Positions 24,434 to 25,857 of a DNA stretch of 64,000 bases are shown in pieces. Under the pieces are notes generated by a model. That model saw nothing but the letters and a program-made list of their open reading frames with translations. It ran no database searches and was not told the origin of the DNA. This DNA comes from Spirochaetota bacterium (GTDB lineage Bacteria > Spirochaetota > UBA4802 > JAFGJZ01): assembly GCA_016928815.1 (NCBI GenBank), contig JAFGJZ010000132.1, forward strand, positions 12,947 to 76,946. Direction: 5' to 3'. The number at the start of each line of letters is the position of its first letter. The stretch's first letter is position 1. Position numbers and translations under genes: made by a program.

Positions 24434-24814
24434 TTATGGTTTGTAGATGCAGCTGCACTTTTCCGATTCAAAAACTTCAATTGAATCGACGATAACCCGG
24501 TTTTTTCCGTATTCCGACAGTTTTGAGGACAGGTTTTCATAAATGAATGATGCAAGGTTTTCAGAGCTCGGATTATTTGCAGTAAAAAAGGGAACTTCTT
24601 CATTGATGTTTTTATGATCCAGAACAGATAAAATATCCCTTACATATGTCTTTAATTCATGAAAATCAATGAGAAGACCTATTTCATCAAGTTTGTCTCC
24701 TTTAACGGTGACAATCACCCTCCAGTTGTGACCGTGAATGTTCTCACATTTTCCCTTATATCCCCGAAGTGCGTGAGCGGATGAAAAACTGTCTTCTGTT
24801 TTAAGAAAGTACAT
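24434..24814 (-). CDS. queD: 6-carboxy-5,6,7,8-tetrahydropterin synthase / 6-pyruvoyl-tetrahydropterin synthase family (QueD-like)
   Basis: C-x5-HGH zinc motif (CENIHGHNW), DFHELK catalytic region and LDHKNIN. Length of about 125 aa. GGAGG RBS overlaps the upstream gene's stop. Confidence 0.7.
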   Translation of the reverse strand: MYFLKTEDSFSSAHALRGYKGKCENIHGHNWRVIVTVKGDKLDEIGLLIDFHELKTYVRDILSVLDHKNINEEVPFFTANNPSSENLASFIYENLSSKLSEYGKNRVIVDSIEVFESEKCSCIYKP

Positions 24815-24825
24815 AAATCCTCCGG

Positions 24826-25857
24826 TTAAATAAATTTGGCAATGTTTCTGGAGATTTTTTCAATTTCATTTTTGGTAAGCGTCGGGTAGATCGGCAAAGA
24901 ATAAAGTTTTTTGCTCATTCTGTCGCTTCTCGGGAAGTCCATGGGTGCGAAACCTTTCATTATATGAAGAGGCGTTTCTACGGGGTGATATATTTCTATT
25001 CCGGCCTTTTTGAAAAATTTTTCCGTTTTTTCCGCAGATGAATCAAAGATAAGAGGAAATGCCTGATAGGTAAAGACAGGATTAAAAGGATACAGGGCAT
25101 GATGCTGTGTCATACGCAGTCTGTCATAATAAATCTGTGCAATTTCACGTCTCCGTCTGATGAAATTCTGTATTCGTGATAGCTGGGAAATGCCCATTGC
25201 TCCCTGAAAATCAGTCATTGTATAGTCAAAACTCGGACTGTCGGAAGAGTAGCGGAATGTTTTAAATGTCGAATAAAATTTAGTATTGTTCGTAAATAAT
25301 GCCGCTCCGTTTCCTGTTGTGATCATATCATATGGCGTAAAAGCGCAGACAGTTATGGACGCATCAAGTCCGATGTGCTTTCCTTCAATTTCCGTACCTA
25401 TGGCATGGGAAATATCCTCAATAACCGGAATGCCCGTCTGTTTGAGTGCTTCAAAACTGTCAACTATTCCGCTTACATGTCCGGTAACTATGGCTTTGGT
25501 GTTTTCATTGCATTTTCTTTTTATTTCGTCAAAATCAGGGAGAAGGTTGTCTTCCTGGATGTCGACGAAAACAGCTTTCGCGCCGATTATTTCAAGAGCG
25601 TTCAGCGGGGCCGAATTGAAGTATGACGGGATTATAATTTCAGAATCCCTGTTTATTCCAAGAGCATGGAAAGCGAGATGATATGCCGCAGTGAGTGAAT
25701 TTACAGCTGTGCAGAATTTAAATGAAGTTAATTCGCATAGATTTTTTTCAAAGGTTCTGGTTATACCGCCGCTTATCAGTTCTTCGTTTATTAAACAGTC
25801 AAGAACTCCTTCAAGTTCCTTTCGTGTAATAGTCGGTTTTCCGGAAACAATACTCAT
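24826..25857 (-). CDS. DegT/DnrJ/EryC1/StrS-family (fold-type I) sugar aminotransferase/dehydratase homolog lacking the canonical PLP lysine
   Basis: Family-typical HAIGTEIEGKHIG and ITTGNGAALFTN blocks. The position of the Schiff-base Lys (SFHxxK) reads CAFTPYDM, with Asp in place of Lys. Start trimmed to MSIVSGKP at 25857, which has a GAGG RBS. Confidence 0.6.
   Translation of the reverse strand: MSIVSGKPTITRKELEGVLDCLINEELISGGITRTFEKNLCELTSFKFCTAVNSLTAAYHLAFHALGINRDSEIIIPSYFNSAPLNALEIIGAKAVFVDIQEDNLLPDFDEIKRKCNENTKAIVTGHVSGIVDSFEALKQTGIPVIEDISHAIGTEIEGKHIGLDASITVCAFTPYDMITTGNGAALFTNNTKFYSTFKTFRYSSDSPSFDYTMTDFQGAMGISQLSRIQNFIRRRREIAQIYYDRLRMTQHHALYPFNPVFTYQAFPLIFDSSAEKTEKFFKKAGIEIYHPVETPLHIMKGFAPMDFPRSDRMSKKLYSLPIYPTLTKNEIEKISRNIAKFI

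Follow-up and report, generated by a model that had tools for sequence, protein, structure and literature searches.

A DegT-fold protein family without the Schiff-base lysine, encoded beside a QueD-type pterin synthase in Spirochaetota

The window analysed here is a 64-kb stretch of the genome of a Spirochaetota bacterium (assembly GCA_016928815.1, contig JAFGJZ010000132.1). It carries a gene for a 343-amino-acid (aa) protein of the DegT/DnrJ/EryC1 fold that lacks the catalytic lysine of this fold and, directly downstream, a gene for a 126-aa pterin synthase of the PTPS family, QueD type. We refer to the lysine-less family to which the 343-aa protein belongs as family S. The first-pass annotation, made from the sequence alone, had placed a DegT-family gene and a PTPS/QueD gene at 24434..25857, and these coordinates proved right, both genes lying on the minus strand; the trimmed start chosen for the 343-aa protein (MSIVSGKPT...) also stands, homologues of 342-346 aa sharing the conserved N terminus. 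It had further described an 11-nucleotide (nt) gap between the genes, which is present, and a ribosome-binding site overlapping the first stop codon, which is not: the GGAGG box starts 2 nt past the TAA stop of the DegT-fold gene and abuts the stop codon with no overlap. From this arrangement we infer that the genes form a two-gene operon and are made together. The intergenic region ahead of the DegT-fold gene is its presumed promoter region; promoter and terminator scans of the locus gave no signal above shuffled controls.

Membership of the 343-aa protein in the DegT/DnrJ/EryC1 family, as first proposed, is borne out by sequence and predicted structure. The protein matches the Pfam profile PF01041 over positions 2-358 of 360 (E = 1.3e-61), its AlphaFold2 model has a predicted local distance difference test score (pLDDT) of 89.8, and the top Foldseek matches of the model are ArnB structures, with a template modelling (TM) score of 0.90. 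It falls below every curated NCBIfam aminotransferase cut-off (PseC, ArnB, LegC, WecE, RfbH, DesI), its best curated score being 176.7 bits for PseC against a cut-off of 423.5. A protein 100% identical to it occurs in a metagenome-assembled genome (MAG) labelled 'Spirochaetes bacterium', and a 100% identical copy in an independent assembly of a sequencing run. Public records label such proteins 'perosamine synthetase' or 'dTDP-4-amino-4,6-dideoxygalactose transaminase'; these labels cannot hold for lysine-less proteins, because the catalytic lysine is missing.

A Schiff-base lysine is needed by nearly all fold type I B6 enzymes. When the window protein was aligned with phmmer, its segment AFTPYDMITTGNGA matched SFHAIKNITCAEGG of ArnB (1MDO) without gaps, with AFTPYDMIT opposite SFHAIKNIT. 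This alignment pairs Asp177 with Lys188, Thr174 with His185 and Asn183 with Glu194, the Glu of the GEGG motif. Both the Lys and the His of the SFHxxK motif are therefore gone, as the first reading had it, and the residue at the aligned catalytic position is Asp. Among the 120 closest homologues (49-67% identity; all those with a named source come from Spirochaetota or Leptospirales MAGs), this position holds Met in 73, Asp in 30, Gly in 9, Asn in 2, Ser in 2 and Lys in 1; these six commonest residues cover 117 of the 120, and His is not among them. The window copy belongs to the Asp minority. By contrast, in a hidden Markov model alignment of 308 Lys-containing relatives the same column is 100% Lys. 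Because 119 of the 120 homologues are without Lys, the loss is not a sequencing or assembly error, a doubt that the first-pass annotation had itself raised; as judged from these alignments, it is real and old.

Across family S and a second lysine-less family described below (family T), the Lys site is Met, Asp, Gly, Thr or Cys, and in family S the loop flanking it is variable too. Since the site varies, no particular side chain is selected and Asp is not a functional replacement: the earlier statement that Asp replaces Lys is correct for the residue found in the window and fails as a functional swap. The contrast drawn there with ColD-type dehydratases holds, in that there is no His at the Lys site and the protein is thus not a ColD-type enzyme. 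Selection on the family was estimated from the ratio of nonsynonymous to synonymous substitution rates (dN/dS). For the DegT-fold gene the median is 0.058 (Nei-Gojobori method, 53 orthologue pairs); for the PTPS gene the value is 0.073. Purifying selection on the family is thus strong, and the gene is not decaying.

To describe the remainder of the active site, we give residue frequencies as family S / family T / Lys-containing relatives, with residue roles taken from a structure paper on Spr1654, ArnB and PseC (PMC5936713). Asp148, which pairs with N1 of the cofactor ring (ArnB Asp160), is kept (1.00/0.95/0.98), as are the phosphate contacts Ser172 (0.92/0.95/1.00) and Thr56 (0.83/0.73/0.82) (PMC5936713). 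Ser54 (0.97/0.91/0.94) is kept as well, and His127, Tyr212, Gln225 and Arg236 are likewise retained at frequencies like those of true enzymes. The window's own copy, unusually for the family, has Ala at the phosphate-binding Ser172. Other positions are lost in both families. Lys177, at 1.00 in the Lys-containing relatives, is gone, as is the Tyr-Ala-Thr that precedes it; Gly55 of the SGT loop (0.99 in relatives) is now Leu or Phe; Glu183 of GEGG has become Asn in 93-95%, so that the motif reads GNG(G/A); and Arg209, His5 and Cys81 are lost. Asn211 (0.89 in relatives), at the amino-donor position that is Lys241 in ArnB and Asn in PseC, is now Asp or Glu and thus 100% acidic, and the amino-donor position of ArnB His185 is taken by Thr, Ala or Ser. 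A further set of residues (R12, K13, E16, C21, S150, N183, D211 and K317) is invariant in families S and T and not in the Lys-containing relatives. We read this pattern as the survival of half of the B6-phosphate pocket, with the transamination machinery gone. A protein that has lost the Lys, the Glu of GEGG and its contacts to the amino donor cannot carry out canonical transamination, which is therefore excluded; ColD/E1-type chemistry is unsupported, since neither His nor any other conserved base occupies the Lys site.

Members of COG0720, the family to which the partner protein belongs, are often misannotated and feed both queuosine and folate synthesis. The partner matches Pfam PTPS with E = 2.5e-39 and scores 100.4 bits against the QueD model TIGR03367 (cut-off 89.25). 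Its motif C23-E-N-I-H-G-H29 is CxxxHGH and ExxHGH at once; the former marks PTPS-I (QueD) and the latter PTPS-III (the FolB bypass in folate synthesis), and CExxHGH enzymes that serve both the queuosine and the folate pathways exist (PMC5041015). Across the motif the protein aligns gap-free to Pseudomonas aeruginosa QueD (2OBA). Rat PTPS-II (1B66) can be aligned only with a gap of two residues between Cys and HGH, the PTPS-II spacing CxxxxxHGH being absent. With solved structures of QueD and PTPS the protein aligns at the LDH catalytic pair. The signature is shared by related partners, as CE[NK][LIM]HGH in 56 of 57 family S partner PTPS proteins and as CExxHGH in all four translated family T partners. 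The description of the partner as QueD-like was therefore right as to family and can be made narrower, since the protein passes the curated QueD model and carries the PTPS-I/III signature. Passing the QueD model with a CExxHGH motif makes a folate-branch role as plausible as a queuosine role. The first-pass remark that queC, queE and queF are not nearby also holds: none of them, and no folate gene, is among the open reading frames (ORFs) of the window. Nor was any association of the QueD-type gene with queC, queE, queF or folE found in the window or in the 10-kb flanks of related loci, which places the pairing outside any que operon.

To ask how far the pairing extends, family S was collected from GTDB genomes, which gave 78 non-redundant species loci. 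In about 60 of them the DegT-fold gene is followed immediately by a PTPS gene, with a median spacer of 21 nt, and in one further locus the PTPS gene is 3.3 kb away. Other neighbours recur as well: of the 78 loci, 63 have RlpA, 53 a response regulator, 48 a kinase, 41 RdgB and 38 Nth. Because the whole neighbourhood is syntenic, the PTPS count in family S alone proves little. Upstream of the DegT-fold gene, about 15 family S species (including L059, L076 and L077) have aromatic amino-acid genes 1.4-4.3 kb away on the same strand, in a run that by eye resembles EPSP synthase, chorismate synthase, chorismate mutase/prephenate dehydratase and a prephenate-dehydrogenase-like gene; in those loci the run replaces the nusG/ribosomal cluster. 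A 4.8-Mb MAG contig has rpoB called as four pieces (L002:1210-4751), which suggests frameshift errors in that long-read assembly and calls for care with single-residue features from this record.

Family T provides a second view of the pairing. It comprises about 23 clusters with the motif SFDTD[TCGS]IITTGNG, two of its members are labelled Spirochaetes MAGs, and its proteins are about 35% identical to those of family S. In all six distinct family T contexts examined, a PTPS gene of the CExxHGH type lies 0-14 nt downstream. Besides PTPS, every neighbour changes from context to context: ABC transporter and restriction genes; sugar-catabolism genes; SecG with a Zip transporter; RecQ with DprA; or a kinase and response-regulator set. 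No other synteny is shared with family S. The conserved lysine-less DegT/QueD pairs looked for after the first reading are thus found in both families, and the family T pairing is the decisive evidence that they are probably more than inherited synteny. In three of the six family T loci the PTPS gene is followed by a hexose-kinase-type PfkB gene, at a gap ranging from overlap to 158 nt, which suggests that DegT-fold protein, PTPS and PfkB form a three-gene unit in some of these loci.

The origin of the lysine-less proteins was addressed with a profile search over 1.84 billion cluster representatives (50% identity). This returned one full-length family S representative at 567 bits together with shorter fragment matches; the next full-length matches reached at most 314 bits. 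Most of these are about 350 aa long with the motif SFYATKMITTGEGG, and they include several fusions with GNAT acetyltransferase or GT4 domains. The closest relatives that retain Lys are thus ordinary amino-sugar enzymes, and the lysine-less forms are therefore derived. About a quarter of the top 150 representatives are without Lys, and they fall into several groups. With neighbour-joining (NJ) trees, bootstrap values were 99-100 for family S and 97-99 for family T; all lysine-less groups came together in 31 of 100 bootstraps, and no branching order among them is supported.

Two earlier placements were withdrawn. Families S and T had been taken as sisters from UPGMA (average-linkage) clustering and shared derived residues, a grouping that NJ bootstraps did not recover. 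P0123 had been taken as the nearest lysine-less outgroup and proved to be a single Lys-to-Met change inside a Lys-containing family: its 53-63% identical relatives all keep Lys, so that here the Lys was either lost recently or misread through an error of one base in sequencing (AAG to ATG). Other lysine-less clades have their own surroundings. The P0131-like clade (L090-L137; for example L103:7201-8274) has His, Met or Asp at the Lys site; 13 of its 43 loci encode a conserved protein of about 357 aa without a Pfam match, mostly just downstream, and nine have a class I/II aminotransferase gene divergently upstream. The neighbours of the other lysine-less clades offered no functional lead. Among Lys-containing relatives, the close relative P0271 (motif SFSDEKMITTGQGG) is encoded directly upstream of ribH (lumazine synthase) and nusB (L084:133-2204), another pteridine-related neighbour that may be a coincidence.

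Within the window, the minus-strand order continues from the DegT-fold gene through the spacer and the PTPS gene to an LpoB/CsgG-like lipoprotein gene and a TrhA (hemolysin III) gene. Upstream and divergent lie the RlpA-like gene, a tRNA-Thr gene and rpmG-secE-nusG-rplKAJL-rpoBC. The features of the locus, with the PfkB genes of family T, are collected in the table.

Table. Positions of the features of the DegT-fold/PTPS locus in the window and of the PfkB genes at family T loci.
Feature	Coordinates	Strand	Basis
DegT/DnrJ/EryC1-fold gene, lysine-less, 343 aa, family S	24826..25857	minus	ORF and Pfam PF01041
PTPS-family gene of QueD type, 126 aa, PTPS-I/III hybrid signature	24434..24814	minus	Pfam PTPS, TIGR03367
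11-nt spacer between DegT-fold and PTPS genes	24815..24825	minus	read from sequence
GGAGG ribosome-binding box ahead of PTPS gene	24819..24823	minus	read from sequence
Former Schiff-base loop CAFTPYDMITTGNGA, residues 171-185	25303..25347	minus	gap-free ArnB alignment
Asp177 codon, at Lys position	25327..25329	minus	ArnB alignment
PTPS active-site motif C23-E-N-I-H-G-H29	24728..24748	minus	read from sequence
Intergenic region between DegT-fold and rlpA-like genes, presumed promoter	25858..26093	.	gene layout only
rlpA-like gene, divergent from DegT-fold gene	26094..27017	plus	gene layout
PfkB-family genes (family T loci)	L087:9178-10059; L141:11434-12387; L142:11597-12523		TIGR03168, 2 of 3 above cut-off

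Some further observations concern the annotation of the surrounding genes. A 685-aa ORF with LpoB/CsgG-like domains (22546..24603, minus) overlaps the 3' end of the QueD gene and has probably been called too long; if it began at about 24213 (MKALKKLFILISAFYS..., with a lipoprotein-like signal), the overlap would disappear. The tRNA-Thr(GGT) gene (27372..27444, plus), just upstream of rpmG-secE-nusG, is the sole tRNA gene in the window. Two aspartokinase-like genes are present, at 14643..15911 on the minus strand and at 62471..63685 on the plus strand, the latter with an amino-acid-kinase domain and ACT domains. At 19744..21675 (plus) lies a gene for a secreted 643-aa protein that has a ricin-type lectin domain and weakly matches the transglutaminase core, and just ahead of it, at 18473..19471 (plus), one for a 332-aa signal-peptide protein without a Pfam match.

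On this evidence we consider it probable that the lysine-less DegT-fold protein and the PTPS are functionally linked. The two proteins would act together in the pterin / 7-deazaguanine branch that derives from guanosine triphosphate, leading to queuosine and possibly to folate. For the DegT-fold protein itself we tentatively favour the role of a non-transaminating, ligand-binding partner of PTPS, accessory or regulatory, over that of an enzyme with new chemistry. By this account the protein would have given up transamination, and its remaining pocket would bind a ligand non-covalently, either a B6 phosphate or a pterin-type heterocycle. It may then assist or regulate the pterin synthase as one of its subunits, by analogy with other dead paralogues that accompany live enzymes (HisZ/HisG, LCB1/LCB2).

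Several observations weigh against such a partnership. No PTPS gene lies within 10 kb in 17 of the 78 family S species, most of them belonging to a single subclade in which the Lys site is Gly, and these PTPS-less copies are under the same constraint (dN/dS 0.057-0.078). The P0131-like group (43 metagenome loci) and the P0172 and P0138 clades (single loci each), all lysine-less, have no PTPS gene within 6 kb. Families S and T are both from Spirochaetota, so that the pairing may have been inherited from one ancestral operon, and they formed an exclusive sister grouping in 0 of 100 NJ bootstraps. Because of the 17 species and of the other lysine-less clades without PTPS, the DegT/PTPS link is strong and is not obligatory.

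The 17 species and the other lysine-less clades without PTPS also lend some support to an unrelated role, with the adjacency no more than an inherited spirochaete operon layout. The protein could then act in envelope sugar metabolism, bind a sugar nucleotide, or be the inactive half of a heterodimer, in the style of LCB1/LCB2, whose canonical DegT half is encoded elsewhere. The protein's closest relatives are sugar aminotransferases linked to GNAT and GT4 domains, the divergent neighbour in most family S loci is RlpA, a cell-wall enzyme, and within family S adjacency to PTPS is no more conserved than adjacency to unrelated genes such as RlpA, RdgB and Nth. We nevertheless judge this explanation rather unlikely, as family T keeps the pair at 0-14 nt while all its other neighbours differ; inheritance alone does not predict this, because the S and T proteins share so little identity. 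Moreover, no second DegT paralogue was found within 10 kb in 83 loci, on which ground a heterodimer with a nearby partner was rejected. The position aligned with ArnB Trp34, a residue that stacks on the uracil of the nucleotide, is Glu in the window protein, which also speaks against this explanation.

A working enzyme with new chemistry is a somewhat weaker candidate, and on balance an unlikely one. It would use non-covalent pyridoxamine 5'-phosphate (PMP), pyridoxal 5'-phosphate or another cofactor, in the way that ColD and E1 hold PMP, together with a relocated catalytic residue. Its substrate would be an intermediate with a carbonyl or amine group, such as a 6-pyruvoyl, 6-formyl or 6-carboxy pterin, or a 7-deazaguanine precursor, made or used by PTPS, and its product an undescribed pterin or deazapurine derivative. 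Retention of Asp148 and the phosphate Ser/Thr at true-enzyme frequencies and the eight newly fixed residues are consistent with a site that is remodelled rather than decayed; the dN/dS of 0.058 is typical of an enzyme, and the conserved operon with PTPS and the PfkB gene that comes third in half of the family T loci point the same way. However, the Lys position holds no conserved base, unlike the His of ColD and E1, the flanking loop varies in family S, and the amino-donor contacts are gone. With Asp in place of Asn211, a negative charge now stands at a position that in relatives touches the phosphate of the cofactor or the amino donor, and the window copy has lost even Ser172. That such a lysine-free enzyme is active and catalyses a step not known before, on a GTP-derived pterin or 7-deazaguanine intermediate that it receives from the PTPS-I/III protein, is more doubtful still; if true, Spirochaetota would have either a variant of the queuosine/folate branch specific to them or a new metabolite derived from a pterin.

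That the gene is an artefact of sequencing or assembly, or a pseudogene in decay, is extremely improbable: nothing was found to suggest one for the window gene (the unrelated singleton P0123 could be such an error), and its ORF is intact and full length, recurs 100% identical in an independent assembly, belongs with homologues of which 119 in 120 lack Lys, and has a dN/dS of 0.058. A defence role through 7-deazaguanine DNA modification was also considered and set aside, as neither protein had a PADLOC match.

Literature searches found no description of the lysine-less family or of the DegT/PTPS pairing. What is new here is a variant within a well-known enzyme family, paired with a known and often misannotated type of pterin synthase. 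A large lysine-less family under strong selection and with a defined partner offers a clean test case for how the scaffold of a dead or repurposed enzyme gains a new role. Moreover, queuosine and folate synthesis in Spirochaetota, including relatives of Leptospira, would have to be reconstructed differently if it involved an accessory protein of its own or one more enzymatic step.

Compared with known sugar aminotransferases (ArnB, PseC, GDP-perosamine synthase and Spr1654), the window protein has the same full-length fold (Foldseek TM 0.85-0.90, 22-26% identity). It shares with them the Pfam family, the ring-nitrogen Asp, the Ser/Thr phosphate contacts and the C-terminal RR and LPxYP motifs. 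Unlike them, it is without the Schiff-base Lys, has GNG(G/A) in place of GEGG and Leu or Phe in place of the SGT-loop Gly, has its His and Asn/Lys donor contacts replaced, and scores far below the curated equivalog cut-offs. Its neighbour, too, is a pterin synthase gene and not a set of sugar-pathway genes. The PMP-dependent 3-dehydratases ColD and E1 likewise have a DegT fold without a Schiff-base lysine, and E1 (3BB8) is detectable as a relative of the window protein (E = 3e-15). ColD and E1 use a His at the Lys position as their catalytic base, and E1 also contains an iron-sulfur cluster. By contrast, the window protein has Asp at this site and its family has Met, Asp or Gly, with no conserved base.

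The partner resembles the PTPS-I/III hybrids of COG0720 in that it passes the QueD equivalog model and carries CExxHGH. Described hybrids were assigned through clustering with que or fol genes, whereas here the conserved neighbour is a lysine-less DegT-fold gene. Dead paralogues that serve live enzymes are known from LCB1 with LCB2 (serine palmitoyltransferase) and from HisZ with HisG, and the window protein may be compared with LCB1 and HisZ as a conserved, selected enzyme paralogue without its catalytic residue. Unlike in LCB1/LCB2, the partner is a T-fold PTPS, unrelated in fold. As with HisZ, the gene of the window protein adjoins that of its putative partner.

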